From the NCBI GenBank assembly GCA_046542505.1, contig JBKHBH010000034.1, positions 1 to 19,088 on the forward strand: a DNA stretch of 19,088 bases, in the 5' to 3' direction. The notes beneath the pieces are model-generated. The model saw nothing but the letters and a program-made list of their open reading frames with translations. It did not search any database and was not told where the DNA came from. This document shows, one piece after another, positions 120 to 19,088 of the stretch; within the stretch, counting starts at the first letter, position 1, and the number at the start of each line of letters is the position of its first letter. The DNA is from Thermovirgaceae bacterium. GTDB lineage: Bacteria; Synergistota; Synergistia; Synergistales; Thermovirgaceae. Both the position numbers and the translations under genes were made by a program.

Positions 120-155
120 TAAGATTGATAAATGTTTTCAAAAGAGGTGGGTGTC

Positions 156-1121
156 GTGAGCATTTTCGGCCCTGTACCATCCAGGCGGCTCGGTTCAAGC
201 CTGGGAATCAACAACATCCCTTACAAGGTCTGCTCCTACACATGTGCCTATTGCCAGATAGGGCGGACACTGAAGATGGAGATCAAGCGCCAGCGTCACA
301 GTGACCCGCAGGAGCTGGCCGGTCTTGTGAAGAACAGACTTCAACGGCTGAAAGAAAAGGGAGGAAAGGTCGACTACCTGACCATTGTTCCAGATGGTGA
401 GCCGACACTTGATCTCGCCCTTGGGGAATTGCTTTCGAAGCTGAAAGAAAATGGTTTACCCGTAGCCGTCATCAGCAATGCTTCCCTCATCTGGAGATCC
501 GACGTTCGTTCGGAGCTTGCTCTTGCGGACTGGGTCAGCCTCAAGATTGACGCAATCTCGCGGGATGTGTGGAAACGGGTTGACAGGCCGCATCCATCTC
601 TTTCCCATGAGGACATTCTCGACGGGATGGAGCAGTTTTCCCGTTCCTACAAGGGGACGCTTTGCACCGAGACCATGCTCGTGAAAGACCTTAACGACGG
701 ACCGATAGAGCTTGAAGGCATTGCGCGCTTCATTTCGACAAGGCTGGAGGTCGACATCGCCTACATATCTGTCCCCACCCGCCCGCCGGCGGCTTCGTGG
801 GTCAGGATGCCTGAAGCCGATGCCGTCGCGGCGGCCTATGCCGTTTTCGCCGAAAAGGGAATACCCGTGGAGACCCTGACTGGATATGAAGGCAACGCTT
901 TCATCGTTACCGACGACCCCGCAGAGGAAATCCTGAACATTACCGCCGTTCATCCCATGCGAAGCGATGCCGTTGAAGAAGTGCTGCGTCGTCAGGGCGC
1001 CGATCACGAAATCGTTGAATCCCTTGTCAATGAAAGGCGTATCAGGCGGGTAACCTACGGAGAGTGGACCTACTACGTGCGCATAATGAAGGAGTCACGG
1101 GATGTCGAAATTTCCTCTTGA
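156..1121 (+). CDS. Radical SAM protein (COG0731-like Fe-S oxidoreductase)
   Basis: N-terminal IFGPVPSRRLGSSLGIN signature, CxxxCxxC (CSYTCAYC) and GEPT motif. Likely start is GTG at 156 after GAGGTGG; ATG at 132 is the alternative. Confidence 0.9.
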   Translation: MSIFGPVPSRRLGSSLGINNIPYKVCSYTCAYCQIGRTLKMEIKRQRHSDPQELAGLVKNRLQRLKEKGGKVDYLTIVPDGEPTLDLALGELLSKLKENGLPVAVISNASLIWRSDVRSELALADWVSLKIDAISRDVWKRVDRPHPSLSHEDILDGMEQFSRSYKGTLCTETMLVKDLNDGPIELEGIARFISTRLEVDIAYISVPTRPPAASWVRMPEADAVAAAYAVFAEKGIPVETLTGYEGNAFIVTDDPAEEILNITAVHPMRSDAVEEVLRRQGADHEIVESLVNERRIRRVTYGEWTYYVRIMKESRDVEISS

Positions 1122-2127
1122 GGTGCTGAGAAAGAAGGTTTATCCCTTTACCCTAGGAAAACATACCGACCCCGGTGTCGTATTGGGATCCACCTTTGGC
1201 GAAGATGTGGCGGTCACACGCGTCGGCGGTGATTTGCTGCTTTCTCATGTTGACCCCATTGTGGGTGCCGTGAAAGGGATTGGTTGGCTGGCTGTTCATG
1301 TGGCCTGCAACGATATCGCCGCAAGCGGCATCAAGCCGAGGTGGATCCAGCTTTTGGTCCTGGTGGCTTCCGCAAAAGAGGTGGACCAGGTCGAGAGGAT
1401 CATGTCCGATGCGGCCAGGGCGGCCGAAAGCCTGGGGGTGACCATCATCGGGGGGCATACGGGGTATTCTGCGGCACTTGAACGCCCCCTCGTTGCGGTG
1501 ACGGCCCTCGCGCCTGCGGAAGGCCGAAGGGTGGTGACGACGGGAGGAGCGAGGCCCGGCGACCTGATCTACGTGACGAGGGGCATCGGGCTCGAGGGAA
1601 CGGGTATTCTTGCCTCTGATTTTGCGGAGGAGGCTCTTTCCAGGGGCCTTGAACAACGGGATATCCAGGATGCCCTCAAGCTGCTCGAGTCCGTCAGTGT
1701 GGTCCCCGAAGCCCTGGAACTGTCCGACCTGGGAGCCACGGCCATGCACGACGTAACCCGCGGAGGCGTTCTCGAGACGTTCCTTGAGATAGGGTCCTGC
1801 TCCGGAGTGTGCATGGATATTGATGCATCAGCTCTTCCCGTTCCCCCTGTGGTGAACCGTTTTGCCGAGGCCTTCGGGTTTGATCCGCTCAAGATGATAT
1901 CCTCGGGGACCCTGGCTGTCACATTGCCTCCCGAATCTGTTGAAGAAGCGGAAAAATGTTTTGCCAGAGGGTTGTGTGATCTGAAACAGGTGGGAGTCGC
2001 GACGGAAGGGGAAGGTGTTCGTCTGCGCGAAAAGGACAAAGACCGGCTTTTTACTGAAATGGCGTGCGAGGAGGACGAACTGGCGCGGATGTGGGAGCTT
2101 CTCGTACCGGAGGGAAAAAGAGCGTGA
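1102..2127 (+). CDS. AIR synthase-family (PurM-like; HypE/ThiL-related) protein
   Basis: Motifs GEDVAV, HVACNDIAASG, IIGGHT, GARPGD, AMHDVTRGG and DPLKMISSGTL. It overlaps the upstream gene by 20 nt and is preceded by AAGGAG. Confidence 0.88.
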   Translation: MSKFPLEVLRKKVYPFTLGKHTDPGVVLGSTFGEDVAVTRVGGDLLLSHVDPIVGAVKGIGWLAVHVACNDIAASGIKPRWIQLLVLVASAKEVDQVERIMSDAARAAESLGVTIIGGHTGYSAALERPLVAVTALAPAEGRRVVTTGGARPGDLIYVTRGIGLEGTGILASDFAEEALSRGLEQRDIQDALKLLESVSVVPEALELSDLGATAMHDVTRGGVLETFLEIGSCSGVCMDIDASALPVPPVVNRFAEAFGFDPLKMISSGTLAVTLPPESVEEAEKCFARGLCDLKQVGVATEGEGVRLREKDKDRLFTEMACEEDELARMWELLVPEGKRA

Positions 2128-6104: not shown

Positions 6105-7328
6105 TCAGGAGGATTCCCGATCCTGCCCCCGGAGAGCGGAGGTGGGCACCCCTTCTTTCCTGCACAGTCTCTTTAGCCTGTGGCGAAGCTCCTTACTCTT
6201 GCGGGACCAGTCCCGGGCTTCCATGTAGGGTCGGATCTCGCGGTGGCTTTCCATGGCCTTTTCGGCGTATTCAATGGCTCGCCCATAAAGGCGGAATTTG
6301 TGTTCGAAGATCTTAGAGAGCTCCACCAGGGCCGTGATCCGCGAGGAACGGTCCACGAGACTGCGTTCAAAAAGCTCGGCCGCCTGTTCCCATCGCTGGT
6401 GTCGTTTTGCGGTGAATGCGAGCCGCAGGCAGGCCTGGGTCGCCTTCGTGGAAGCATCTTTTTCCGCCATACTCCAGAGTTGCTCCGCCTGGTGAAGTTT
6501 TCCCCTGGAAGCCCAGAGATCGCCCGCCCGCAGGAGGTCCTCTGTTTTCGTGGTACTGCCGCTGAGCAGGCTCGCGATCCGGGCCTCGAGGGAGGCAAGG
6601 GAGAGGATGTCCGTCATGTTGTGGATAAAAACCCCCGACAGGGGCCCGGCATTGCCGGTCCGCAGAAAATCGGCGTAGTGCCGGGGTACGAGCCATCCCG
6701 GGACGTCGGAATGGTCCCTTTTGACGCCCAGGACGCCGTTTTCTATGGTCCCGAGCCTGCAATCGGGGAGTCGGCCTTTCCAGATCCATCTGGCCAGGTA
6801 CAAAAGGTCCAGGTGCCCCTTTTCCGCGTCGGGAGGGGGCTTTTTGTTCAGGATGGAACGGGACTGGAGTATTGGGAGATCGAAACGTTTGCCGTTATAG
6901 GTAACGAACCCCGTAGCCGGAGCGATCCATTCGAAAAGATGATCGAGCCACGTGTTTTCGGCTTCGGGGGTACTCAAGAAAATTTGCCTGATGACGAAGG
7001 AACTATTGATAATCCTGCCGGTTCCTGCAAGAAAGGCATAGGTCCCCGTACCGCCCGCAAGACCGGTGGTCTCCAAATCAAGAAAGACCGGGCTTGATGT
7101 GGCTCCCCACTCTTGCAAGATTTCTTCGGCTTTGGAAACGTCCCCAAGGGGGACGGTACCGTGCCTTCCCGAAAGGGGGAATTTCCCTTCCATGAGGAAG
7201 ACGCCGTCGTCGAGCCATTCCCCTTCGGGAAGCCCCGATATTCGGTGGAGCTTGCGGGAAACCCTTTCCGGCTGAACAGGGCCGAGAAGCCGTTCGAGAC
7301 GCTGAAACCGCTCAGTCCCGTCAGTCAT
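6105..7328 (-). CDS. mrfB: MrfB/YprB-like DEDD exonuclease (RNase_H_2 domain) with C-terminal TPR-like helices
   Basis: Motifs FLDLETTGL, TYNGKRFD, HLDLL and HNMTDILSL, plus a TPR-like C-terminus. The start ATG at 7328 (MTDGTERF) overlaps the helicase stop (ATGACTGA) and follows GAGGGA. Confidence 0.85.
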   Translation of the reverse strand: MTDGTERFQRLERLLGPVQPERVSRKLHRISGLPEGEWLDDGVFLMEGKFPLSGRHGTVPLGDVSKAEEILQEWGATSSPVFLDLETTGLAGGTGTYAFLAGTGRIINSSFVIRQIFLSTPEAENTWLDHLFEWIAPATGFVTYNGKRFDLPILQSRSILNKKPPPDAEKGHLDLLYLARWIWKGRLPDCRLGTIENGVLGVKRDHSDVPGWLVPRHYADFLRTGNAGPLSGVFIHNMTDILSLASLEARIASLLSGSTTKTEDLLRAGDLWASRGKLHQAEQLWSMAEKDASTKATQACLRLAFTAKRHQRWEQAAELFERSLVDRSSRITALVELSKIFEHKFRLYGRAIEYAEKAMESHREIRPYMEARDWSRKSKELRHRLKRLCRKEGVPTSALRGQDRESS

Positions 7329-9627
7329 TGTTTCCCTCAGGCTCCTTGTCTCTGGAGAATCCCCGGCTTTTCTCCAGGAGCGTATCCAGCAAAAAACGGG
7401 TGTCCCGTTTCGAATGCATCTGCGATCCCATGGCACCGACGCAGGCGGGGCAGCCATCCTCGCAGGGGCATCCCTCGAGTGCTTCGGCGGCGGATTTGAG
7501 AAGGGTCTTTCTGAGTCCGTAGGCTGCTTCGGCGAGGCCGACTCCACCGGGGTAATTGTCTGCGATATAGATGGCCGGGCCTCCAAGGAAGGGGTCTTTT
7601 ACCATGCTGTGGATCCTGAGGTCGTGGCGGTCACACATAAGAAAGAGGGGGACCGTGCCCTTCAAAAGATGTGCAAGACCTGTCAAAGCCGAGCTCCGCC
7701 GGTCCTCGGACCATCCTTCCCAGACGATGCCCGTAGGGAGAAAGAACCAGCATGCCGTGGTGTGCATCTGGTCCTCCGGCAGGTGGATGTGGCCGTATCC
7801 GACATTCTCGTGGGTATGGAGGCGGATCTTCTTGTAGACCGTCGGCCTCGACGCAAGCAGGACCTCTCCCCAGCCCCACTGGTTCTGTGTATCAAAGGTG
7901 TCAATGACCTGGAAACGGACCGCCATGTCGGCGTCGGTGTAGTAATCAGCGTCCACTTTCCTGACGTAACAACGCATGCCCTTGCTGTCGAGTTCCGTCA
8001 CCTGGTAGGATTCTCCGCCGTGAAAGTAGATGGCTTCGGGGTGGATCAGCATGGGGGCGCTTGGTCTGTCCACCTCGCCGATGACCACGGGGTTTGCCGT
8101 CTCGGTGATGTCTGTGATCACATAATTTTCGCTCGTGGCGCTTCTCAGGGACAGGGACTCGGCGGGGAAGGAGTCGGCCTGCCAGTGATACCTGCCTCCG
8201 GCGTGGTGGAGAATGCCCTGGGCCTCAAGGTATTCTAGAATCTCTTCGGGGTCCTCCTCGCCGAAGCGCTCCCCCTTGTCGAAGGGAAGTTCGAAGGCGC
8301 CGCATTTGAGGTGACTCACGAGGATATAAAGGTTGTCGGCGTTGATCCTCGCCTGCTCAGGGGAGGCGCCGAAGAAATAGTCGGGGCGTGAAGCCAGAAA
8401 CTGGTCCAGCGCAAAGGACGACGCCACCATGACTGCGGCCGATATCCCGCTTCGGCGTCCCGCTCGTCCCATTTGCTGCCAGGTGGAGGCAACGCTGCCG
8501 GGATATCCGTGGAGAACGGCAAGTTCCAGGGACCCGATGTCGATCCCGAGTTCCAGGGCGTTGGTGCTGATCACGCAGGAAAGGGAGCCGTCCCGCAGGC
8601 GTCTTTCGATGGCGCGGCGCTCGTTGGGGAGGTAGCCGCCGCGATAGCCTGCGACGGAATCGGCAGGGAGCCCGCTTTGGCGGAGAGCCTTCCTGATATA
8701 GGTGAGAAGCAGCTCGACGTTGATCCGGGATCTTGTAAAGACGATGGTGCTGATGCCGTTTGAGACGGCGTTGCCGGCGATGCGTGCCGTTTCTTTCAGC
8801 GATGATTTCCGGATGCCGAGCTGGCTGTTCACCACGGGAGGGTTGTACAAAACGATCCGTTTTTCTCCGCTCGGCGCACCGTTTTCGGCGACGATTTCCA
8901 CAGGGGCCTCCAGGAGCCTTTCGGCATGGTCCTTCGGATTGCTGATTGTGGCCGAGCTGCAGATGAAACGGGGGTTTGAGCCGTAGAAGGCGCAAATCCG
9001 CTTTAGCCGGCGGATGAGATTTGCCACGTGGGAGCCGAAGACGCCGCGGTATGTGTGCAGTTCGTCGATGACCACGTACCGAAGGTTCTCAAAAAGTTTG
9101 ACCCACTTGGTGTGATGGGGGAGAATCCCCGTATTCAGCATATCGGGATTGGTAATCACGATATGTCCCGCCGCGCGGAGCTTCGTCCGCACCGACGGTG
9201 GAGTGTCCCCGTCGTAGGTGAAGGTCTTGACGGGAGCACCGGCTTCCTGGATGAGGCCGTACAATTCCGTCAGCTGATCCTGACTCAGGGCTTTGGTGGG
9301 GAAAATGTAGAGCGCACGGGATGCATTGTCTTTCATTATCGCGTCGAGAACGGGAATGTTGTAGCAAAGCGTTTTCCCCGAGGCTGTGGGTGTCACGGTC
9401 ACAACGTTACGGCCCGACAGGGTGGCTTCTATTGCCTTTGCCTGATGGCTGTAGAGACTTTCAATACCCCGTCGTGTTAACGCAACGCGCAATCGCTGGT
9501 CGACATCCGGCCATTCGCAGAAGTGGGGCGGGCGCTCAGGAAGAACCTGTTCGGCCGCAATGTCTCCGCCCAAAGACGTAAGAGTACCCAGAAATTCATC
9601 GAGAGTTTTTCGGCGTTTTTTCAGCAG
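7321..9627 (-). CDS. mrfA: MrfA/YprA (Hrq1/SftH-like) SF2 DEAH-box helicase with C-terminal DUF1998
   Basis: LYSHQ Q-motif, TPTASGKT, DELH, SAT, TNALELGIDIG, QQMGRAGR and a four-Cys C-terminus (MCD...CPCEDGCPAC). Start is probably CTG 9627; the ORF track start is TTG 9573. Confidence 0.9.
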   Translation of the reverse strand: MLKKRRKTLDEFLGTLTSLGGDIAAEQVLPERPPHFCEWPDVDQRLRVALTRRGIESLYSHQAKAIEATLSGRNVVTVTPTASGKTLCYNIPVLDAIMKDNASRALYIFPTKALSQDQLTELYGLIQEAGAPVKTFTYDGDTPPSVRTKLRAAGHIVITNPDMLNTGILPHHTKWVKLFENLRYVVIDELHTYRGVFGSHVANLIRRLKRICAFYGSNPRFICSSATISNPKDHAERLLEAPVEIVAENGAPSGEKRIVLYNPPVVNSQLGIRKSSLKETARIAGNAVSNGISTIVFTRSRINVELLLTYIRKALRQSGLPADSVAGYRGGYLPNERRAIERRLRDGSLSCVISTNALELGIDIGSLELAVLHGYPGSVASTWQQMGRAGRRSGISAAVMVASSFALDQFLASRPDYFFGASPEQARINADNLYILVSHLKCGAFELPFDKGERFGEEDPEEILEYLEAQGILHHAGGRYHWQADSFPAESLSLRSATSENYVITDITETANPVVIGEVDRPSAPMLIHPEAIYFHGGESYQVTELDSKGMRCYVRKVDADYYTDADMAVRFQVIDTFDTQNQWGWGEVLLASRPTVYKKIRLHTHENVGYGHIHLPEDQMHTTACWFFLPTGIVWEGWSEDRRSSALTGLAHLLKGTVPLFLMCDRHDLRIHSMVKDPFLGGPAIYIADNYPGGVGLAEAAYGLRKTLLKSAAEALEGCPCEDGCPACVGAMGSQMHSKRDTRFLLDTLLEKSRGFSRDKEPEGNND

Positions 9628-9651: not shown

Positions 9652-11400
9652 CTAGCAACTTTCCTGCCCCACGGCGAGGGTTCTGAGGCGGTTAATGGCT
9701 GCCGATATTTCCTGGGGTCTCGGCCTCGCGTGTTCGGCGGGGGGCCTGCCGAAGGGGGAGATGACGTCAAGTCCTTCTCTGTCTATGCGTTCTTCCACAG
9801 CCTGGAGGATGCGATGGAGGGGTCGTCTGCCGTCGATGATGCCTTCACGGAGCGCGAAGAGGAGGATGTCGCCTATGGCCCGCGTCTGGCTCTCGTCGAC
9901 GATCTGTTCCACCCGATCCAGATCTATCGTCGTGGGCCCGAACTGAATATGCCATTTCCCTCGAGCCCGCACGGCCGTCTTTTTCCCCTTCTTCGGATCG
10001 AAACTTTCAGGCCGGGGGATTCTGCATGCCACGTTCCCAAGTGCGGCGGGCTGTTCCGAAGCCCTGAGGTTAGGGAAATCACAGGCGATTTGTCGTGCTT
10101 CGGCGGTAACGTCTCGGGGGCGGAAGTGGTCCATAAGAATGACGTGATCCGCGGTATCGAAATAATCCCCTGAGCCCCCCATGACCAGGATCGTCGAAAC
10201 ACCGTCTTGTTCATAAAGTTCTCGGGCGCGGTCGATAAAGGGGATGATGGGTTCCCTTTCCGCTGCCACGAGCTGTTGCATCCGGGCATCGCGGATCATG
10301 AAGTTTGTCGCCGACGTGTCCTCGTCCAGAAGAAGCAGTTTTACCCCCGCTTCGAGGGCCTCCATGATGTTGGCGGCCTGGGATGTGCTTCCGCTCGCGT
10401 CGTCGGTCCTGAAGGCCCCGGTATCCCTGCCGAAGGGAAGGTTGTTGATGAAGGGGGAGATGTCGACGCCCTCGACTCTTCTGCCGTCTTCCGCCCTGAT
10501 CTTGGCCGCCGAGCCGACGGCGACCACCTGTTCCCGGCCGTCGCCGGGGACATGGTTGTAGATGGAATGCTCCAGAGCCGCCAAAATGGTGGACTTGCCG
10601 TGAAACCCTCCTCCGACGATGAGGGTGACGCCCTTTGGGATCCCCATGCCACGCACCCTGCCGCCGTTGGGTGTTTTTATCTCCACTTCCAGGGAGGGGG
10701 GGCTTTCGAAGAGTACCGCCCTGTCTCTGGCAAGAGGCCTCGGGTCGATGCCGCTTCGTCTCGGAAGCAGCGCGCCGTTGGCGACAAAGGCCACCAGCCC
10801 CTCTGCTTCGAGGGCCTGTCGAAGGGCTTGTTGGTCTTCGACGGCATGCACGTGGTCCTTCATCGCCTTTTCCGGGAGGGCGCCGGCCAAAAGGGATTTT
10901 GCGGCCACCTCGGGCAGGTCTGTCGTCAGCATCTTCAGCGCCTCGCCGCCGTCTATGCGCCTTCCTTTGGCGGGCAGGCCGACCAGAAGCCTGGCTTCAA
11001 GCCGCTCGGGGAAGATCCTTACGCAGCTTCTTTCCAGTACTTCCTGTTTCGGCGCATCTATGGTGATCATCCCGCTTTTACCTGAGCCTCTCCGTTTCCC
11101 AGAGATTTTTTCCAAAGCTGTGTGAACGGAGCGGGCAAGGAAATCTTCCATGGCCGTCCGCCTCGTTTTACCTGATATCAGCTCCCGCGGAAGTCCCGTT
11201 CCGGCCATGGGTATGGACAGGGCGATCTGGGAAGGTGAGGCAAAGGGATCCCCCTGGACGTACTGGACAGTCAAGACAAACCCGGGAAAGGAGAAACTTT
11301 TCCCCTGGAGATCCTTGTAGGCCTTGTACCCCTTGCCGTCGATGCGTGAGAGAATGCGTTTCAGTTCCTGCATGTCCTTTTCGATCACTCCAGACTTCAT
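9652..11400 (-). CDS. Predicted ATPase of the ABC class (COG3044 / ABC_ATPase family, soluble)
   Basis: Motifs RIDGKGYKAYKDL, VQGDPFASPS, Walker A GGGFHGKST, ASGSTSQAANI and Walker B LLLDEDTSATNFMIRD. No TM partner nearby. Start may be ATG 11373. Confidence 0.9.
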   Translation of the reverse strand: MKSGVIEKDMQELKRILSRIDGKGYKAYKDLQGKSFSFPGFVLTVQYVQGDPFASPSQIALSIPMAGTGLPRELISGKTRRTAMEDFLARSVHTALEKISGKRRGSGKSGMITIDAPKQEVLERSCVRIFPERLEARLLVGLPAKGRRIDGGEALKMLTTDLPEVAAKSLLAGALPEKAMKDHVHAVEDQQALRQALEAEGLVAFVANGALLPRRSGIDPRPLARDRAVLFESPPSLEVEIKTPNGGRVRGMGIPKGVTLIVGGGFHGKSTILAALEHSIYNHVPGDGREQVVAVGSAAKIRAEDGRRVEGVDISPFINNLPFGRDTGAFRTDDASGSTSQAANIMEALEAGVKLLLLDEDTSATNFMIRDARMQQLVAAEREPIIPFIDRARELYEQDGVSTILVMGGSGDYFDTADHVILMDHFRPRDVTAEARQIACDFPNLRASEQPAALGNVACRIPRPESFDPKKGKKTAVRARGKWHIQFGPTTIDLDRVEQIVDESQTRAIGDILLFALREGIIDGRRPLHRILQAVEERIDREGLDVISPFGRPPAEHARPRPQEISAAINRLRTLAVGQESC

Positions 11401-11670
11401 TCCTGTTTCCGGTTGATGCCGCAGGAAAGGCTGGCTTGCTTACCGTCCTGCCACAGCCCCTTTGGCTTTTCGTGCACCTGCCATCCTCGCAATGAAGCAA
11501 CTCGCCACCATCAACCACGGGACAGGCCGTGGCTTGTTTGCGCAAGGAAGCCTGGTTGCAGCCGATGACGGCAAACCATAGGGCAGTTTTCGGGAAAGGC
11601 CGCTGTGAAAAGGGCCTTTCTCATGGAAACAAAAGGGCGAAGAAAAGGCAAGGGGGAAACCACCGGGAAG

Positions 11671-11695
11671 CGGGGGGCCTGGAAAAGGCCCCCCG
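11671..11695 (-). terminator. Stem-loop immediately downstream of citF (possible terminator)
   Basis: CGGGGGGCCT (11671-11680) pairs with AGGCCCCCCG (11686-11695), a 10-bp stem 7 nt after the stop. The U-tract is weak (CTTCCC). Confidence 0.55.
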
Positions 11696-11702
11696 TACTG
11701 TG

Positions 11703-13253
11703 TTATTTGTTTTTCAACTGCCTGACCACGTCGATGACTGACCCGTCCCTGTACTCGACGACTCCGATAATCCGGTCTTCCACCTCTACGGGCGACATCG
11801 GCCCCGTGAGTTTTTCTGCTTTTTCCACGAGATCGTCGATGGAAACGAGCGGGATTTCCGGGTCTGATTTTGCGGCTTCGAGAAGATCCTTACGGTTAGG
11901 GTTGATGGCGACGCCGAATTCGGTCACCACGGCATCGACGACTTCACCCGGGGTGGTTACCGTGTAGACCGAGTCGACCACCGAAGGGATTCTTCCGCGC
12001 AAAAGGGGTGTGGTGATGATCGTCAGCTTCGCGCCGCTGGCCGTATCCTGGTGACCGCCGATACCGTGAAGCAGCGCTCCGTCTGCCTCAGTGTTGACGT
12101 TTACATTGAACTTCCGGTCCACTTCGGTGGCCCCGAGGACGACGGTATCGAGCATGTTGACCACGCAGCCGGCGTTCCAGGGGTTTGCGTACCAGTCGGC
12201 GGAAATCTCAACATGTTTTGCGTTGCGAGAGATCGACTCGACTGCGGCCAGGTCAAAGGACTGGACGTCGAGGATCTGCTCGAAAAGTCCCTCCTCGAGC
12301 ATGTCGACGAAGAAACTCGTGATTCCCCCGAGACCGAAGCTGCCCTTTATGTCCCGTTCCCGCATGGCTTCCCTGACATATGCCGCCGCCGCAAGAGAAA
12401 TGCCGCCCGCTCCTGTCTGGAAGGAAATACCCTCCCGGAAATAGGGGCTTGCCTCGATCAGGTGAGCCGCGTACCGGGCGATAAGAAGCCGCATGGGATC
12501 CCTGGTGACCCGGGTCGTTCCCGAGACGATGCCTGAGGGGTCTCCGATCTTGTCGACTTCAACCACGTAGTCGACCTGGGTCTGGGGTATCTGGATGTCC
12601 AGGGCGGGGTAGTTGACGAGATTGTCCGTGACGGCGATGACGCATTCGGCGAAATCGGCGTCGGTATGGGCGTATCCCAGTGAACCGCATGCCGATTCGC
12701 CATGGGCGCCGGTGATGTTCCCGTATTTGTCCGCCGTGGGAGCGGCGACGAAAGCTGCATCGATATGGACGTCACCGCTTGTGACCGCGCGGGGGCGTCC
12801 GCCATGACTCCTGAGGATCACAGGCAGCTCCATGCCGCCTTCCGAGGCCAGTTGTCCGATTGGGCCGTTCACCGAGCCCTGGATCTGCTTGATGACCCCT
12901 TTTTGAATGTGCTTCGTCAGGTGCTTGTGGACACCGAAAAGAGCCGTGGGAAACACGATGAGGTCCTTGATCCCCAGTTCGTAGCAGGCGTCGAGGACCA
13001 TGTTGACCACGTAGTCGCCGTTGCGAAGATGATGGTGGAAGGAGACAGTCATTCCGCTTTCGAGACCGGAAGCCTTGATGGCGGCCTTGATGTTCGGAAG
13101 CGTCTTGTCCGTCTTGGTATTGAAGGCGGCCCTGTTTTTCTTGCCGATCCTGTTTCCCTTGGGAAGTCGCTTGGTATATCCCCTGAAGGGGAGTACGTCT
13201 CCGTAGCCCGGGATCGTATTGGGTATGTTGCGTCCTGCCGCGTTGACAGCCAT
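11703..13253 (-). CDS. citF: Citrate lyase alpha subunit (citrate CoA/ACP transferase)
   Basis: Motifs MAVNAAGRNIP, GMTVSFHHHLRNGD, RSHGGRPRA, FQTGAGG, GIGGHQD and VEYRDGSVIDVV. GGAGGTG SD present. Confidence 0.93.
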   Translation of the reverse strand: MAVNAAGRNIPNTIPGYGDVLPFRGYTKRLPKGNRIGKKNRAAFNTKTDKTLPNIKAAIKASGLESGMTVSFHHHLRNGDYVVNMVLDACYELGIKDLIVFPTALFGVHKHLTKHIQKGVIKQIQGSVNGPIGQLASEGGMELPVILRSHGGRPRAVTSGDVHIDAAFVAAPTADKYGNITGAHGESACGSLGYAHTDADFAECVIAVTDNLVNYPALDIQIPQTQVDYVVEVDKIGDPSGIVSGTTRVTRDPMRLLIARYAAHLIEASPYFREGISFQTGAGGISLAAAAYVREAMRERDIKGSFGLGGITSFFVDMLEEGLFEQILDVQSFDLAAVESISRNAKHVEISADWYANPWNAGCVVNMLDTVVLGATEVDRKFNVNVNTEADGALLHGIGGHQDTASGAKLTIITTPLLRGRIPSVVDSVYTVTTPGEVVDAVVTEFGVAINPNRKDLLEAAKSDPEIPLVSIDDLVEKAEKLTGPMSPVEVEDRIIGVVEYRDGSVIDVVRQLKNK

Positions 13254-13256
13254 GTC

Positions 13257-14132
13257 CTATTCACCTCCCTCGAGAAGCCCTGCCCGCTGCAGGGTGTACT
13301 CGGCCCGCTTGATCACGGGTTTGTCCACCATGCGTCCGTCGACGGAAACGGCTCCGAGGCCCTTTTTGGCGGCTTCTTTCGCGGCGGATACAATCTTTTG
13401 GGCCCGGTCGATTTCTTTCTGCGTCGGGGCAAAAACATTATGGATGACAGGAATCTGGTTCGGATGGATGACGCTTTTGCCCTGGAAACCAAGCTGTTTA
13501 ACCCATTCCGTTTCCCGGCGCAGTCCTTCATCGTCGGTGACATTCGCGTATACCGTGTCAAGAGCGTCAACTTTTGCTGCGTGTGCGGCAAGCACGACGA
13601 TCCGCCTCGGGCCGATCAGTTCTTCGCCCGTCTCAGACCGGTCCGTCTTGAGATCCGCCCTCAGGTCCTCTCCGCCGGGGCAGATTGCTGCAATTCTCGG
13701 GGTAGATGTGGCGATGTCGTAGGCTCTCCAGATACCAAGAGCCGTTTCCAGAAGGCAGAAGATCAGGGTTTTCCCTATGGAGATACCTGCTTTCTCCTCG
13801 ATTTCAGAAAGGGCTTCATCAAGAATCTGCATATCCTTGGGGGACTCCGCCTTCGGGACACGGATTCCGTCGATGCCGCAAGGGACGACGGTCTCGATGT
13901 CCTTTTTCCACATGTCGGTGTCCATGCCGTTGATCCGGACTGTGACCTCACAGTCGCCGAAATCCCCCTGTTTGAGGACCTCCCTCACAAGGATCCTTGC
14001 GGCGTCCTTTTCGGACATGGAGACGGCGTCCTCGAGGTCCAGGATGACGCCGTCGGGCCGGAAGAGGTGTCCCCGAAGGAGCATGTTGGGGTTGTTTCCC
14101 GGAAGATAGAGTTTCGTTCTTCGGAGTTTCAT
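13257..14132 (-). CDS. citE: Citrate lyase beta subunit (citryl-ACP lyase, HpcH/HpaI fold)
   Basis: Motifs LRRTKLYLPGNNP, DLEDAV, VRIN, PKAE, LLETALG, GKSVIHPNQI and DGRMVDKPV. ATGA overlap with citD. Confidence 0.92.
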   Translation of the reverse strand: MKLRRTKLYLPGNNPNMLLRGHLFRPDGVILDLEDAVSMSEKDAARILVREVLKQGDFGDCEVTVRINGMDTDMWKKDIETVVPCGIDGIRVPKAESPKDMQILDEALSEIEEKAGISIGKTLIFCLLETALGIWRAYDIATSTPRIAAICPGGEDLRADLKTDRSETGEELIGPRRIVVLAAHAAKVDALDTVYANVTDDEGLRRETEWVKQLGFQGKSVIHPNQIPVIHNVFAPTQKEIDRAQKIVSAAKEAAKKGLGAVSVDGRMVDKPVIKRAEYTLQRAGLLEGGE

Positions 14133-14401
14133 CGGAAATCACCTCCGAGGAGCCTGGAGGCCGCAGCCTCAACGCGCGCCCTGAGCACCAGGTCCGTCGC
14201 ACCGTTATCCTGAATGGACAGTTTTATGTCCTTGACGCCCATTTCCTTGAGGGTTTCCTTGGCCGATTTGAGGATGGCTTCACCAAACCTGGTGATGCTT
14301 GCTCCCTCCATCGAAACGGATATACCTCTGCCCTTGTCCACTTCGCTGGCGGTAACCAGGCAATCCATGGATTCAAGGGTTCCTGCCTGGGCTGTTTTCA
14401 T
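14129..14401 (-). CDS. citD: Citrate lyase gamma subunit (acyl carrier protein)
   Basis: 90 aa starting at ATG 14401 after GGAGG. Contains AGTLESMD with the prosthetic-group Ser, and QDNGA..VLRARVEAA. Confidence 0.92.
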   Translation of the reverse strand: MKTAQAGTLESMDCLVTASEVDKGRGISVSMEGASITRFGEAILKSAKETLKEMGVKDIKLSIQDNGATDLVLRARVEAAASRLLGGDFR

Positions 14402-14559
14402 TCCCATTCCTCCAATGCATAAAGAGGCAGGAGCGGTTAAACCGCCTAAACGGCAAGGCCACTTCATTGGTGGCTCAAACCGCGCCTGCCTCGAAATATT
14501 CGGCACCGTTCCGGGGCCGAATATGCTTCCCGCCCCGGAGATTCCCTGGTGCTACCAGG

Positions 14560-15795
14560 TTAAACCAGATGCTCCCATGCACACATTTCCTTTGCCTTGG
14601 CACAGATTTCGTCGGCCTTCTTGTCAAACTCCGGATCGATCTTCGCGGCAATTGCCTTTGCCATCTCGAGAGTGGATACGGCCTTTGTCTCCCAGTCCTT
14701 GTCGCCCCTGTCACGCCAGATATCGTAGGTGAGAGCCTTTCCTTCGACAAGGGTGTCGCCGATGGCCTTTTCGAGTTTTTCAGCGTGCTCGTCAAGCTGG
14801 AGATAATAGAGCATCATCGCGGCGGTGATCAGAAGCCCACAGGGATTGATCTTGTACTGGTGAGCGTATTTTGGCACGGACCCGTGGCTCGGTTCGAAAA
14901 GTGCCGCCTCCTCGCCGATATTACCGCTGGGAGAGAATCCCATGCCTCCGATGAGCTGGGAGGCCTCGTCGGAAAGGATATCGCCGAAAACGTTGGATGT
15001 GACAATGACCTGATAATTCTGGGGGTTCTTCAGAAGCCACATGGCCGTCGCGTCGGCGTTCTCCTCGCGGGCTTCGATTTCGGGGTATTCCTTGGCGATT
15101 TCAAGGAAGCGTTCCTTCATCATGCCGTCGGTGGCCCGGATGACGTTGGCTTTGTTGCAGTTTACGACGCTTGTCAGGCCGTTGGCCTTGGCATATTCGA
15201 AGGCGGCCCGGATGATGCGGTCGCAGCCTTCCTTGGAAAAGACGCGCCAGGAAACGGCGACTTCTTCCTTGTCCTTGTAGCGTTCCATGCCGGGATGGAG
15301 GTCGAACATTTCCTTCGGGAGAGGGCGCCATTCAACGGCGGAATAAAGGTCTTCCGTATTTTCCCTGAAAACGGCGATATCAATATTGGGATCACCCTTC
15401 AGGGGAGTGCTGATACCGGGGTAGAGCTTTGCCGGGCGGAAGTTGATAAAGAGATCGAATTTCTGCCGCATCTGCAGGATGGCCGACTTGAAGCCCTTCA
15501 CGCCTGATTTTGAGGTAATTGCCGCCATGAGTGTTGCATCGGTGTCCTTGACCTTGTCGAACGTCTCGGGCGGCACGGTGTTCCGACGCGGATCGCCCTC
15601 GGGATACTCCTTGCTGGCCTTTTCCCACATGCACCAGCCCATGTCGGCCCGCACCCAGTCTATAGGAGCGTCCAGAGCCTGCATTACGATCATTGCGGCT
15701 TCCATGACGTCAAAGCCCGAGTCGTCGCCGGGAATATAGGCAACCTGATAGCGGTCCTTTTTTTCCTTGACCTGCATGACATTCTTTCTTGCCAT
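14560..15795 (-). CDS. Isocitrate/homoisocitrate/isopropylmalate dehydrogenase family beta-decarboxylating dehydrogenase
   Basis: Motifs IPGDDSG, MRQKFDLFINFRP, FRENTEDLY, KANV, NVFGDILSDEAS and FEPSHGSVPKYA. Start ATG 15795 after GGAGGT. Substrate unresolved. Confidence 0.92.
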   Translation of the reverse strand: MARKNVMQVKEKKDRYQVAYIPGDDSGFDVMEAAMIVMQALDAPIDWVRADMGWCMWEKASKEYPEGDPRRNTVPPETFDKVKDTDATLMAAITSKSGVKGFKSAILQMRQKFDLFINFRPAKLYPGISTPLKGDPNIDIAVFRENTEDLYSAVEWRPLPKEMFDLHPGMERYKDKEEVAVSWRVFSKEGCDRIIRAAFEYAKANGLTSVVNCNKANVIRATDGMMKERFLEIAKEYPEIEAREENADATAMWLLKNPQNYQVIVTSNVFGDILSDEASQLIGGMGFSPSGNIGEEAALFEPSHGSVPKYAHQYKINPCGLLITAAMMLYYLQLDEHAEKLEKAIGDTLVEGKALTYDIWRDRGDKDWETKAVSTLEMAKAIAAKIDPEFDKKADEICAKAKEMCAWEHLV

Positions 15796-15826
15796 TGGTA
15801 ATGACCTCCCTGAATAGTTTTGGTAA

Positions 15827-15857
15827 TCCGGCGGCCGGATTTGAAACGGCCGCCGGA
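15827..15857 (-). other. Intercistronic stem-loop
   Basis: Perfect 11-bp inverted repeat TCCGGCGGCCG / CGGCCGCCGGA with a 9-nt loop and no U-tract. Confidence 0.7.
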
Positions 15858-15871
15858 ACTGCACTGGTCAG

Positions 15872-16366
15872 TTACTCCAGTCCCAGAGATTTCTTTACGT
15901 GAGGAATCAGTCCCCCGTCCTCAATAAGCCCCCTGACAAAGTCAGGGTATTTCGGGAAGGAGAAAGACCCCTTCGGCGTAGTGATCTCGCCCTTGTCGAA
16001 GTCGATGGTGATTTCGTCTCCCGCCTCGATGGCGTCCACGGCTTCTGGAGACACCACGATGGGAAGCCCTTCGTTGAGAGCGTTGCGGTAATAGATCCTT
16101 GCGAAACCCTTGGCGACGATGGCGGCGATTCCGCGCTCCTTGATGCACGTCACGGCCTGCTCGCGGGAAGACCCGCAGCCCCAGTTTTTGCCGGCCACGA
16201 TGATGTCTCCCGGTTGTGCGTTTTTGGTGAACTCGGGGTCCAGGTCCTCCAGGGCGTACTGGCCCATCTCGGACCGTTCGGAAACGGTGTAGGTGTATTT
16301 CCCGGGGAAAATGACGTCGGTGTTGACGTCATCGCCGTATTTCCAGACCTTTCCTGTCACTTTCAT
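15872..16366 (-). CDS. LeuD/HacB/DmdB-family hydro-lyase small subunit (copy A)
   Basis: Motifs [46 protein letters not shown] and GGLI. Confidence 0.92.
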   Translation of the reverse strand: MKVTGKVWKYGDDVNTDVIFPGKYTYTVSERSEMGQYALEDLDPEFTKNAQPGDIIVAGKNWGCGSSREQAVTCIKERGIAAIVAKGFARIYYRNALNEGLPIVVSPEAVDAIEAGDEITIDFDKGEITTPKGSFSFPKYPDFVRGLIEDGGLIPHVKKSLGLE

Positions 16367-16368
16367 GG

Positions 16369-17625
16369 CTACAGCACCTCCCTCGGATCGGTGATGGCGC
16401 CTTTGAGGGCTGAAGCGGCCACCGTCAGCGGGCTCGCGAGGTAGATGAAGCTCTCCTTGTTGCCCATGCGGCCCTTGAAGTTCCTGTTCGCTGTCGAGAT
16501 GCAGGTTTCACCTGGGGCCAGGATCCCTTCGTGGTTCCCCATGCAGGGGCCGCAGCCGGGATTATTGAGGATGCAGCCCGCATCGAGAAATACGTCCATC
16601 AGGCCTTCCTTCATGGCCTGGCGGTAGACTTCCCAGGAAGCGGGAATGACGATGGTTCTGACGGCCACTTCCTTGCCCTTCAGTATTTCCGCCGCCGCCC
16701 TGAGGTCCTCGATCCTCGCGTTGGTGCAGCTTCCCAAAAATGCCTGGTGGATTTCAGTGCCGGCGACCTCCGAGACGGGGGCATAGTTGTCCACCGTGTG
16801 AGGCTTGGCAACGCAGGGTTCAAGTTCGCCGAGGTCGTATTCAAGTTCCTTGACATACTCGGCGTCATCGTCCGCCCAGACGGCTTCCCACTTGTCGGCC
16901 TTGGCGTTTTTCGCAACGGCGTCGAGAACCTTCTTATCAGGAGGGCACACGGCGTTTTTCGCGCCCATTTCAATTCCCATGTTGCAGAGGGTCATGCGCT
17001 CTGCCAAAGACATGTCAGCGATGCCCTGTCCGTGAAATTCAACGGACATGTAATCGGCTCCGTCGGCCTTGATGTCGCCGATGACCTTGAGGATCAGGTC
17101 CTTTGCGGCAACCCCTTTTTTGAAAGAGCCCGTGACGGTGATTTTCATCGATTCCGGGACACGGAACCAGATCTGCCCCGTTGCCCAGGTGGCGGCCATT
17201 TCGCTTCTGCCGATGCCGGTGGAGAAGGCGCCGTAGGCTCCGTAGGTGCAGGTATGGCTGTCGCTTCCCACCATGATAAGTCCGGGCAGAGCAAACCCCT
17301 CCTGGCACATGATCTGGTGGCAGACGCCGCCTTTGCTGTTGACGTCAAAGAAATGCTTTATCCCCTGTTCCTTCACGAATTCCCTGATAATCTTGTGGTT
17401 TTCGGCGTGTTTGTCTGTTGGAGCCGGAACGGCGTGGTCCAGGACGAAGACCAGGTGATCCGGATTCCACACCTTTTTAACGCCGATCTTCTTGAAGATC
17501 TTTGAAATTGGTGCCGCGTTATCGTGGCTCATGCAGAAACGGGGCTCCACGGTGACGACCTGTCCGGTCTTGACATCCTCTCCCGCGGCTTTTCCAAGAA
17601 CCTTTTCCGCAAAGGTCTTACCCAT
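16369..17625 (-). CDS. LeuC/HacA/DmdA-family [4Fe-4S] hydro-lyase large subunit (copy A)
   Basis: Motifs MGKTFAEK, SHDN, DH, GVCHQ, GSDSHTCT, GSCTNAR, PGCGPCMG, STANRNFKGRMG and YLASP. Confidence 0.93.
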   Translation of the reverse strand: MGKTFAEKVLGKAAGEDVKTGQVVTVEPRFCMSHDNAAPISKIFKKIGVKKVWNPDHLVFVLDHAVPAPTDKHAENHKIIREFVKEQGIKHFFDVNSKGGVCHQIMCQEGFALPGLIMVGSDSHTCTYGAYGAFSTGIGRSEMAATWATGQIWFRVPESMKITVTGSFKKGVAAKDLILKVIGDIKADGADYMSVEFHGQGIADMSLAERMTLCNMGIEMGAKNAVCPPDKKVLDAVAKNAKADKWEAVWADDDAEYVKELEYDLGELEPCVAKPHTVDNYAPVSEVAGTEIHQAFLGSCTNARIEDLRAAAEILKGKEVAVRTIVIPASWEVYRQAMKEGLMDVFLDAGCILNNPGCGPCMGNHEGILAPGETCISTANRNFKGRMGNKESFIYLASPLTVAASALKGAITDPREVL

Positions 17626-17638
17626 CTGCTTTCACCTC

Positions 17639-18154
17639 CTATTGCTGTTTTTCGGCCTGCGCCTTGAGATACTGAATCAGCCCGCCGTGGGCCATGATGT
17701 CTTTTTCCAGGTCCGTTACAGCGTCGCCGTGCATGGTTTCCCCTGTGGTGAGGTTCTTGATTTCGCCAGTGTCCATGTTCACTTCGAGTTCGTCGCCGTC
17801 GCTGACCTTGTCCGTGATGTCAGGTACGACGAGCACGGGGTAACCGTTATTGACGGCGTTTCGATAATAGATGCGTGCATAGGATTCCGCCAGGATCACG
17901 GGGATTCCAAGTTCCTTGAGACAATAGACGGCGTGTTCCCTCGAAGAGCCGCAGCCGAAATTTTCGCCCGCTACGACGATGTCGCCAGGCTTGGCTTCCT
18001 TGGCGAAATTCTCCTTGCCCGGATAGTATTCGAACGAGTACTGGGCCATTTCCTTGGTATCGGTGACTCCGAGGTACTTGTTGTGATAGATCAGGTCTGT
18101 ATCCACGTCGTCACCGAAAACCCAGGCCCTGCCACGCAGGATATTTTCTGCCAT
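17639..18154 (-). CDS. LeuD/HacB/DmdB-family hydro-lyase small subunit (copy B)
   Basis: Motifs [39 protein letters not shown] and HGGLI. AAGGAGG SD present. Confidence 0.9.
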
Positions 18155-18167
18155 TTGTGATTCCTCC

Positions 18168-19088
18168 TTACCCGAGAATCTCGCGGGGATCGGTGATCAC
18201 GCCGCGGACGGCCGATGCCATTGCTGTCATCGGGCTGGCAAGGTAGGTGTGGCTGCCCTTGCCGACCTTGCCGAGAAAGTTCCTGTTTGTCGTCGACATG
18301 CCCACGTCGCCGCTGGGCAGGGTCCCGTAATGTTTTGCCGTGCACAGGGCGCATGTGGGATTGGTGAAGACCACGCCCGCATCAAGGAACTTGTCGATGA
18401 ACCCGGCCTGGGCACACTGTTTCATGACTTCCCTCGTGCTGGGCGTTATGATCGCTCTCATGCCCGGGTCGATCCTGAAATCAGCTGCCTTTAGCACTTC
18501 GAAGGCTGCTGCGATGTCTTCAAACCTGCCGTTGGAACAGGAACCTATATGAACCTGGTCAAGATGCTCGCCGGCTACTTCCCTGACGGTCTTGACATTG
18601 TCGGGGGCGTCGGGAGCGGAAACCATGGGTTCGAGCTGGTCCACATCGAACTCGTATTCTTCCGTGTAAACGGCGTCGGAGTCGGCGCGAATATTCTCCG
18701 CCATCTCGCGGACTTCTTCGCCCGCATGATCCGCAAGCCAGTCAAGGACCTCTCCATTTGGCTGAATCAGCCCGATTTTCCCGCTCATTTCCGTCACCAT
18801 GGAACACAGGGTGATCCGTTCGGCGAGATTGGATTCCTCAATGGGTTTTCCGTAGAATTCCACGGCTTTGTAGATGAGTCCACCCGCACCGAGGGTGCCG
18901 ACGATCTTTGTCAGCAGGTCGCGCATGCAGACGCCCTTTTTGAAGGAGCCTTTGGCCGTGATCTTGACCGTTTCGGGGACGCGGTACCAGAGCTTGCCGA
19001 GGATCCATGACGCGACAATATCCGTGTTGCCGACACCGGTGGCAAAGGCACCGACGGAACCCAGAAGGTTCATGTGGCTGTCCGTGCC
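18168..19088 (-). CDS. LeuC/HacA/DmdA-family large subunit (copy B), 5' part outside the window
   Basis: The frame is open to the window edge ([10 protein letters not shown]...). Motifs [33 protein letters not shown] and YLASP. Confidence 0.9.

Follow-up and report, generated by a model that had tools for sequence, protein, structure and literature searches.

The DNA analysed here is the whole of contig JBKHBH010000034.1 (19,088 nucleotides, hereafter the window) from a Thermovirgaceae bacterium of the phylum Synergistota (GenBank assembly GCA_046542505.1). Between positions 19088 and 11703, eight co-oriented and closely spaced genes of the minus strand encode two LeuCD-type hydro-lyases (subunits lgB, smB, lgA and smA), a beta-decarboxylating dehydrogenase (dh) and a citrate-lyase-type enzyme (citD, citE and citF). 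We tentatively propose, with slightly less than even confidence, that this cluster is a catabolic module running 2-oxoacid elongation backwards, in which the CitDEF-type lyase replaces the synthase, and whose favoured substrate would be 2-oxoadipate derived from lysine. The proposal starts from four kinds of observation, namely the gene content, its conserved order and linkage, the sequence signatures of the enzymes, and the co-occurrence of the cluster with a lysine transaminase. Neither the cluster nor a CitDEF-linked reverse elongation route was found described in the literature searched, supplements apart. As far as we found, the pathway is thus undescribed: the enzyme families are known, and their combination, the hydro-lyase devoid of its acid His, and the implied lyase substrate are new.

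Results

Composition of the cluster

The window is contig C76 of a 2.14-Mb assembly (genome G000), 93.5% complete; G, C and L numbers are our handles for genomes, contigs and loci. Genes were called from open reading frames (ORFs) together with Pfam and NCBIfam models, and scores are given in bits against the cut-off of each model. The features of the cluster, from its 5' to its 3' end, are:

18168..19088, minus strand: lgB, LeuC-type large subunit B, a derived paralogue (Pfam Aconitase, 3.4e-69), 3' 306 codons only
17639..18154, minus strand: smB, LeuD-type small subunit B, loop YLGV (Aconitase_C; TIGR02087, 187.6 against a cut-off of 109)
16369..17625, minus strand: lgA, LeuC-type large subunit A with a canonical active site (PRK00402, 575 against 385)
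15872..16366, minus strand: smA, LeuD-type small subunit A, loop YTYT (TIGR02087, 196.3 against 109)
14560..15795, minus strand: dh, beta-decarboxylating dehydrogenase of 411 aa (Pfam Iso_dh, 2.8e-82)
14402..14559, minus strand: dh-citD spacer, with a 7-bp GC hairpin CCGGGGC...GCCCCGG and no T-run (sequence inspection)
14129..14401, minus strand: citD, acyl-carrier (gamma) subunit (Pfam ACP; TIGR01608, 69.6 against 63.5)
13257..14132, minus strand: citE, beta subunit, lyase of the acyl-ACP C-C bond (Pfam HpcH_HpaI, 2.7e-59; TIGR01588, 337 against 443)
11703..13253, minus strand: citF, alpha subunit, acetyl-ACP:acid ACP-transferase (Pfam CitF; TIGR01584, 650 against 501)
11670..11696, minus strand: GC-rich hairpin directly 3' of the citF stop (11 pairs, 9 of them G-C; tail not T-rich)

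Because the window is a complete contig, lgB is cut at its 5' end. Two starts lie inside longer ORFs: the dh ORF spans 15864..14560, and alignment places the start shared by its orthologues at the ATG at 15795; the citD ORF opens at 14506, and the ATG at 14401 fits both the CitD model and a preceding GGAGG site. ORFs and both model sets bear out the eight co-oriented genes and their order as given in a preliminary description of this stretch, made from the sequence alone. The close spacing claimed there holds overall, except for the 158-nt gap with its hairpin between dh and citD. Nor does the window hold a LeuA or homocitrate synthase gene, again in agreement with that description. A scan of the cluster for promoters and terminators gave nothing convincing on the coding strand, the dh-citD spacer showing no consensus for either, and the hairpin after citF is likely the end of the transcription unit.

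Conservation and linkage

Orthologues of dh with 69-98% identity were present in 23 of the 41 nearest genomes (G000 included), and all 14 relatives' loci that were fetched hold the same eight genes in identical order. Such an arrangement is far beyond chance. At the level of the phylum, 151 Synergistota genomes, each at least 90% complete, were sampled with an orthologue threshold of E up to 1e-100: dh is carried by 48 of them, in 26 of 56 genera. Scanning one genome per species gave 73 dh loci, from which all flank counts below are taken. Nearly all belong to Synergistota (Thermovirgaceae, Aminiphilus, Cloacibacillus, Synergistes and others), and two are from metagenome-assembled genomes (MAGs) with other labels.

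Upstream order was judged in the 51 loci whose flank 5' of dh spans 5.2 kb or more. An HD-domain gene, lgB, smB, lgA, smA and dh succeed each other in this order in all 51, and none has a synthase upstream. Linkage of citDEF was judged in 58 loci, the downstream flank being too short in the other 15. It was seen in 50, where citDEF stands directly after dh (46 loci), after a 4.5-kb insert (1 locus) or upstream (3 loci). The upstream arrangement reads IclR-citD-E-F-citG-HD-... in L093 and L094, and citC-D-E-F-citXG-GntR-HD-... in L058, which has a more distant CitEF set. In eight loci citDEF is absent from the flank; among five genomes without adjacent citDEF that were checked, four have CitF elsewhere.

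In relatives, a GntR/FCD regulator followed by the HD-domain gene (about 190 aa) lies 5' of lgB. The same pair is found in G000 at the start of contig C20, where the HD gene runs off the contig, so that the layout is one of ten genes split between C20 and C76. The closest models to the regulator are LldR, NanR and GlcC, all below cut-off. For the HD-domain protein no solved relative was found at E up to 0.01; its Atlas matches are generic HD phosphohydrolase clusters only, and NCBIfam returns only an HDIG domain, near cut-off. When the 1032 ORFs of the 73 loci were clustered, the 27 recurrent flank families annotated proved to be unrelated housekeeping genes only, and no transporter or pathway partner recurs beside the cluster.

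The relatives and C20 thus supply what lies beyond position 19088: a regulator and an HD gene, and no synthase. The preliminary description had seen a CitDEF-type lyase where a condensing synthase would stand, and the linkage in 50 of 58 loci, like the order upstream, confirms this across genomes. It had also named a pattern that would speak against its reading: a leuA or homocitrate synthase directly upstream with ordinary biosynthetic products, along with separate transcription and no conserved citDEF linkage. This pattern is not what is seen: the regulator and the HD gene occupy the upstream place, the canonical leuA, leuC and leuB of relatives lie in a separate ilv/leu operon (leuB was seen in G004 and G030), and the linkage to citDEF is conserved.

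Some loci depart from this picture. One group of MAG loci has a PNPOx-like gene between smA and dh (L060:9527-9964, L066:9437-9931), and citDEF is not nearby. L062 and L084 carry class I fumarase alpha and beta genes just 5' of the HD gene, and L062 has a malic enzyme gene downstream (L062:2734-5159 and 11342-12514).

The dehydrogenase

The substrate loop of dh, GFKSAILQMR, is invariant in nine orthologues, and KSAILQMR is found in all lineages checked. Solved isocitrate dehydrogenases (IDHs) carry a Ser-x-Asn motif at this loop, which we take to be Ser113 and Asn115 of the Escherichia coli enzyme, the Asn presumably binding the gamma-carboxylate of isocitrate. This signature is missing from dh, in which the Asn is replaced by Ile in nine of nine aligned orthologues and in two further lineages. 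The loop also contrasts with those of the IDH paralogue (RSLNVAIR) and of LeuB ((Q/R)GILL(R/K)LR) from the same lineage. With the loop of Thermus homoisocitrate dehydrogenase (HICDH), GFFGAIRYLR (3asj, 1x0l), it shares Ala-Ile (GF..AI), and Arg85 of the Thermus enzyme becomes Leu.

In NCBIfam, dh reaches none of the equivalog cut-offs. Its highest score is with AksF2, a homoisocitrate dehydrogenase model (303 against 540, and 339 for the L093 orthologue); PRK09222, the best IDH model, gives 284.5 against 509, AksF 255 against 500, and TIGR00169 (LeuB) 184 against 353. Over its full length, the best solved relative of dh is Thermus IDH, followed by two NAD-IDHs and Thermus HICDH, and the substrate-loop segment alone has isopropylmalate dehydrogenase 1w0d as best solved match. 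A PKYA motif is present as in IDHs, in place of the PDIA of HICDH and LeuB; from work on E. coli IDH, we take it to mark the use of NADP(H). Taken alone, the sequence of dh would leave either homoisocitrate or a 3-alkylmalate as substrate.

The two hydro-lyase pairs

The large subunit of pair A keeps DH, DSH, CNM, the three Cys and NRNF..GR, and has seven lineage-specific changes, all conservative. The large subunit of pair B has 18 such changes at positions that do not vary across lgA, LeuC and fused aconitase, among them DH to DL, DSHTxT to DSHMNL, CNM to CSM and GRMG to GKVG; it keeps the three cluster-binding Cys, DSH and NRNF. Its full-length orthologue L015:5934-7229 scores 453.5 against 385 with PRK00402, and lgA remains below the cut-offs of HacA_Meth (497 against 550) and LEU2 (481 against 610). 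The Asp-His pair, DH in lgA, is DL in lgB in all three lineages aligned, and we take the lost His to correspond to aconitase His101. According to a passage of PMC8184944, that residue protonates the leaving hydroxyl in aconitase. The GSSRE motif, which holds the Ser base, is kept in both small subunits.

The best solved relative of smB is 3vba, the small subunit of the Methanocaldococcus isopropylmalate/citramalate isomerase (2e-51), and smA matches 3vba (6e-42), 1v7l (2e-40) and 2pkp (2e-36). Recognition loops are YLGV, YLAE or YLAV in smB and YTYT, in three lineages alike, in smA. None holds an Arg, unlike the loop GGARVLPLRS of the fused aconitase of L102. Solved archaeal small subunits have YLVY (isopropylmalate/citramalate isomerase), YLRT (homoaconitase) or YNLT (Pyrococcus), the last also without Arg. 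According to a passage of PMC7308503, substrate preference is attributed to this loop, and the small subunit of Pyrococcus can stand in for that of Thermus homoaconitase.

These signatures suggest a division of labour in which pair A would catalyse the secondary-alcohol half-reaction and pair B the tertiary-alcohol one. Thermus homoaconitase is also a half-reaction specialist, and the Thermus and fungal lysine pathways likewise have to split the two hydro-lyase half-reactions between different enzymes. Another specialist in the aconitase superfamily, AcnD, is described in a passage of PMC8184944.

G000 has a third LeuC/LeuD-type pair at the ends of two small contigs (C70:24-1433 and C26:7446-7982, both minus strand). 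It is 39-47% identical to pair A, and its small-subunit loop is YLDL.

The CitDEF lyase

CitF and CitD pass the citrate-lyase equivalog cut-offs, and CitE does not. Since low TIGR01588 scores (321-378) are likewise obtained for CitE of L058, L093 and L019, the shortfall may reflect lineage distance. Comparison with CitE of E. coli (operon fetched) and with the CitE of a paralogous cluster (see below) gave only three fixed group differences, none of them interpretable. CitF is 48% identical to the CitF of the paralogous cluster in G004, and in G143 and G150 the cluster CitF is the only one. The accessory genes citC, citX and citG were found over cut-off in five of five genomes searched, G000 included, unlinked to the cluster; citG is joined to it in L093 and citXG in L058.

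A lyase of the citrate (pro-3S) type removes the arm that the isomerase leaves untouched. It follows that any non-symmetric substrate needs either an inverted lyase or a hydratase setting the other configuration at C2, and the remodelled pair B is a candidate for the latter.

Link to lysine

Directly after the cluster, L093 and L094 carry a gene for a transporter that passes the NhaC model (442.6 against 370) and has some likeness to ArcD, below cut-off (384 against 650); next come a small ORF and a gene for L-lysine 6-transaminase (TIGR03251, 568 against 520.8). G143, a genome with the transaminase beside the cluster, has a second, stand-alone copy. In L063, a class I aminotransferase gene lies directly 3' of dh.

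Across the phylum sample, the TIGR03251 family matches 63 of the 151 genomes, including all 48 that carry dh. Among these 48 the match is over cut-off in 47, and in G052 it reaches 486.5 bits with one in-frame TAA. Both genes are thus present in 48 genomes, the transaminase alone in 15, dh alone in none, and neither in 88. In naive tests, which treat kin as independent, p was about 1e-26 across genomes, 1e-10 across genera and 2e-6 within transaminase-holding families. Neither of two comparator genes nests in this way. For PF03435 (saccharopine-dehydrogenase family), 34 genomes have both, 14 dh only, 15 the family only and 88 neither, and it is found in 0 of 3 genomes of the genus of G030. For the IDH of the second cluster described below, 35 genomes have dh only and four the IDH only.

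This context breaks, in part, the tie between homoisocitrate and a 3-alkylmalate toward 2-oxoadipate and homocitrate. G030 carries both cluster and transaminase, and its lgB is named in the protein database as coming from Thermanaerovibrio acidaminovorans. As reported in a passage of PMC3035242, this organism ferments lysine to acetate and propionate; citrate lyase activity was present in cells grown on glutamate, and neither IDH nor methylaspartase activity was detected.

Elsewhere, a transaminase-family gene of G046 stands beside EF-P and a short class II tRNA-synthetase-like gene (L130:6294-9105). The latter is presumably EpmA-like, a context which hints that some TIGR03251-family transaminases may have another role.

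A second, citrate-type cluster in related genomes

At least three related genomes have a second cluster, with a fused aconitase, a canonical NADP-type IDH and CitD2E2F2:

L102:1921-11033, second cluster of G004
L105:2891-9130, second cluster of G030
L106:4367-10540, second cluster of G034

G004, which is of the same genus as G000, has there TctC-TctB-TctA, the fused aconitase (642 aa), the Iso_dh protein and CitD-E-F. In G034 a FAH-family gene, which could encode an oxaloacetate decarboxylase, lies 3' of the citF of this cluster. The two CitDEF sets are 45-48% identical. The second cluster was not found in G000, and its IDH is present in 17 of the 151 genomes versus 48 for dh, 13 of the 17 also carrying dh. 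It could be a gene set for citrate use, or for making acetate from glutamate by reductive carboxylation.

Synthases of the LeuA/CimA type sit in separate operons in the relatives. In five genomes searched no full-length citrate synthase was found, and three of them hold only an ORF of 250-275 aa matching its C-terminal half:

G004:C1:1931486-1932094, partial citrate synthase ORF
G010:C1:258483-259061, partial citrate synthase ORF
G030:C1:476552-477154, partial citrate synthase ORF

Other genes of the window

The remainder of the window consists of unrelated genes. Directly downstream of the cluster, 9652-11400 (minus strand) encodes a 582-aa protein with ABC_N, ABC_ATPase and MRB1590_C domains and no NCBIfam match. 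At 6105-9573 (minus strand), a DEAD/DEAH helicase with an MrfA zinc-binding domain adjoins an RNase_H_2-superfamily protein, a pair which resembles the MrfA/MrfB repair pair of Bacillus; the same pair lies 3' of citF in G004 (L015). At 132-2127 (plus strand) lie a radical SAM gene and a gene of the AIR-synthase-related kind (AIRS/AIRS_C), with an overlap of 20 bases between them.

Discussion

Proposed pathway

From these observations we infer the reverse direction of the module, together with its substrate, its stereochemistry, the split of the half-reactions and the redox balance. L-lysine 6-transaminase would convert lysine into 2-aminoadipate semialdehyde, from which 2-aminoadipate and then 2-oxoadipate would be formed. 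The NADP-type dehydrogenase would use NADPH for the reductive carboxylation of a 2-oxoacid into a 3-substituted malate, here of 2-oxoadipate and CO2 into homoisocitrate. Pair A would dehydrate this product to a cis-alkene (cis-homoaconitate), which pair B would hydrate to a 2-substituted tertiary hydroxy acid (homocitrate), and CitDEF would cleave the latter into acetate and a 2-oxoacid one carbon shorter, in this case 2-oxoglutarate. The net reaction would be lysine + 2-oxoglutarate + CO2 + H2O -> 2 glutamate + acetate. It would be redox-neutral, one NAD(P)H being formed and one consumed, and would funnel lysine into glutamate fermentation.

Several points weigh against this proposal. The dehydrogenase has Leu at the position of Thermus Arg85, a residue that reportedly (Miyazaki, in 2003) binds the distal carboxylate, and whose loss favoured 3-isopropylmalate; no replacement Arg or Lys was identified in either the dehydrogenase or the hydro-lyases. 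The acetate arm of natural (R)-homocitrate sits where a citrate (pro-3S)-type lyase does not cleave, so that the proposed route calls for inversion in either the lyase or the hydratase. Judging from its sequence, lgB has no hydroxyl-protonating His, and the predicted hydro-lyase activity of pair B is not assured. The transaminase adjoins the cluster in only 2 of the 73 loci and, in five genomes, lies elsewhere among unrelated genes, such as those for MreB, SAM synthetase, glycine reductase, flagellar proteins and EF-P; 15 sampled genomes have it without the cluster, and the co-occurrence statistics overstate the association because kin are not independent. No gene was identified for 2-aminoadipate-semialdehyde dehydrogenase or for 2-aminoadipate aminotransferase. 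Finally, Aminomonas paucivorans is reported in a passage of PMC3035310 not to grow on lysine, which would count against the proposal if that species carries the cluster.

Alternative explanations

The same backward module might act on an alkyl acid, which we regard as unlikely. In that case 2-oxobutyrate, CO2 and NADPH would yield 3-methylmalate, then citraconate and citramalate, and at last acetate and pyruvate, a larger analogue (isopropylmalate) being possible, and the 2-oxobutyrate would come from threonine, methionine or propionyl-CoA. The dehydrogenase loop would fit such a substrate, with Ile-Leu where LeuB of the lineage has Leu-Leu and its IDH has Asn-Val, and with 1w0d as best solved match, as would the kinship of smB with 3vba, a subunit of an isopropylmalate/citramalate isomerase. 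Clostridium tetanomorphum has an (S)-citramalate lyase of the CitDEF type, according to a passage of PMC8473912. By carbon tracing, glutamate passing through propionyl-CoA and 2-oxobutyrate labels acetate at C2-C4 as the methylaspartate route does. The methylaspartate pathway itself was rejected as the origin of the citramalate: none of five genomes searched gave a match to glutamate mutase E, and the methylaspartase family matched in two of the five only over 80-100 of its 249 positions (28.9 bits in G034, just above the cut-off of 27), results that favour the alkyl acid route. Against this route, none of the 73 loci showed a gene for threonine or 2-oxobutyrate metabolism next to the cluster, the dehydrogenase loop is nearer to that of HICDH (GF..AI) than to that of LeuB, and the adjacency of the lysine 6-transaminase and its presence in 48 of 48 dh-bearing genomes are left unexplained.

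A forward, biosynthetic use appears improbable. The lyase would then be reversed, and acetate and a 2-oxoacid would be elongated, in an ATP-sparing manner, to 2-oxobutyrate, 2-oxoadipate or 2-oxoglutarate. Chemically, every step is reversible, abundant acetate together with removal of the product could by our own estimate drive the sequence forward, and no full-length citrate synthase was found in the five genomes searched. Yet LeuA/CimA-type synthases are encoded in operons of their own in the relatives, the GntR/FCD regulator comes nearest to LldR, NanR and GlcC (below cut-off), the dehydrogenase motif is NADP-type and not the NAD-type of LeuB and HICDH, and the adjacent lysine 6-transaminase is a catabolic enzyme.

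There is also little probability that an ordinary citrate lyase and a module of two LeuCD pairs and a dehydrogenase, with separate roles, are neighbours by chance. The hairpin spacer of 158 nt between dh and citD, across which co-transcription is not implied, would agree with it, as would the eight of 58 loci without citDEF in the flank, where PNPOx-like, class I fumarase and malic enzyme genes are nearby. Linkage in the 50 others, maintained through three arrangements that include citCDEFXG in L058 and citDEFG in L093 and L094, speaks against it.

Least probable of all is a second system linking citrate, isocitrate and 2-oxoglutarate, with a two-enzyme aconitase, an unusual IDH and a citrate lyase, serving citrate fermentation or, through reductive carboxylation, glutamate breakdown: the scores of CitF and CitD, the small number (three) of fixed group differences between the CitE of the cluster and those of E. 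coli and the paralogous cluster, the lack of another CitF in G143 and G150, the Thermus IDH as best full-length solved relative of dh, its NADP-type PKYA motif, and the citrate lyase activity of glutamate-grown T. acidaminovorans (PMC3035242) are countered by Ile in place of the IDH-motif Asn in nine orthologues and two further lineages, by small-subunit loops without the Arg of fused aconitase, by the canonical aconitase/IDH/CitDEF cluster standing separately in G004, G030 and G034, by the want of a tricarboxylate transporter recurring beside the cluster, and by the IDH activity reported as not detected in that organism (same source). Because of the non-IDH loop of dh, the small-subunit loops without Arg and the separate citrate-type cluster, citrate thus appears an unlikely substrate of the cluster.

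For the same reasons two suggestions of the preliminary description, the label of tricarboxylate pathway and the route from 2-oxoglutarate to citrate, are not supported. The import of citrate or aconitate that it considered finds no recurrent transporter beside the cluster. Among its three candidate routes, 2-oxoadipate to homocitrate is now the best supported, by transaminase adjacency and co-occurrence, and its interpretation as a whole is partly supported.

Comparison with known systems

The alpha-aminoadipate pathway of lysine synthesis and methanogen 2-oxoacid elongation likewise combine two-subunit LeuCD-type Fe-S hydro-lyases with an Iso_dh dehydrogenase. These systems (alpha-aminoadipate, AksF) have a homocitrate synthase, where the cluster described here has a CitDEF-type lyase and a catabolic direction is proposed. 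It differs further from homoaconitase/HICDH systems by a dehydrogenase of NADP type with Leu for Arg85, by one hydro-lyase without the His, and by scores that miss the equivalog cut-offs. Citrate lyase of E. coli and Klebsiella has the same D-E-F order and three subunits, and citC, citX and citG are in the genome as well. Here, however, most lineages have the accessory genes away from the cluster, the lyase genes form an operon-like block with hydro-lyases and dehydrogenase, and the substrate is probably not citrate.

The second cluster follows the same logic of hydro-lyase, beta-decarboxylating dehydrogenase and CitDEF. It differs by its single fused aconitase with an Arg loop, its RSLNVAIR IDH and, in G004, TctCBA; it is rarer, and no description of it was found. 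As for LeuCD/LeuB and the citramalate route, the enzyme families are the same and dh is hydrophobic at the Leu-Leu positions of LeuB, but the cluster has two hydro-lyase pairs instead of one, and misses the LeuB, LeuC and LeuD equivalog cut-offs.

Significance

It is possible, though rather doubtful, that Synergistota shorten 2-oxoacids stepwise by reverse elongation, on a ladder that relies on CitDEF-type lyases, in which one rung would lead from 2-oxoadipate to 2-oxoglutarate and the next, by the second cluster, from 2-oxoglutarate to oxaloacetate, with acetate released at each step. If so, a homocitrate lyase would be new, and a hydro-lyase without the His would serve the tertiary-alcohol half-reaction and might set the opposite C2 configuration for the lyase. 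The redox-neutral conversion of lysine, 2-oxoglutarate and CO2 into two glutamate and acetate would explain how lysine yields acetate and propionate without butyrate.

Were the proposed route itself correct, it would represent an undescribed anaerobic breakdown of lysine (or of another 2-oxoacid source), in which enzymes of a biosynthetic series work backwards and a lyase that needs no ATP lifts the thermodynamic barrier that a synthase would present. The old observation that Thermanaerovibrio converts lysine into acetate and propionate would gain a genetic basis, CitDEF-type lyases a new substrate class, and the aconitase superfamily a new functional type, a member without the acid His. Culturable carriers exist, which makes the route directly testable. 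As carriers are common (48 of 151 genomes, 26 of 56 genera) and live in anaerobic digesters, oil reservoirs, guts and rumen, models of carbon flow in these habitats would need to include it.

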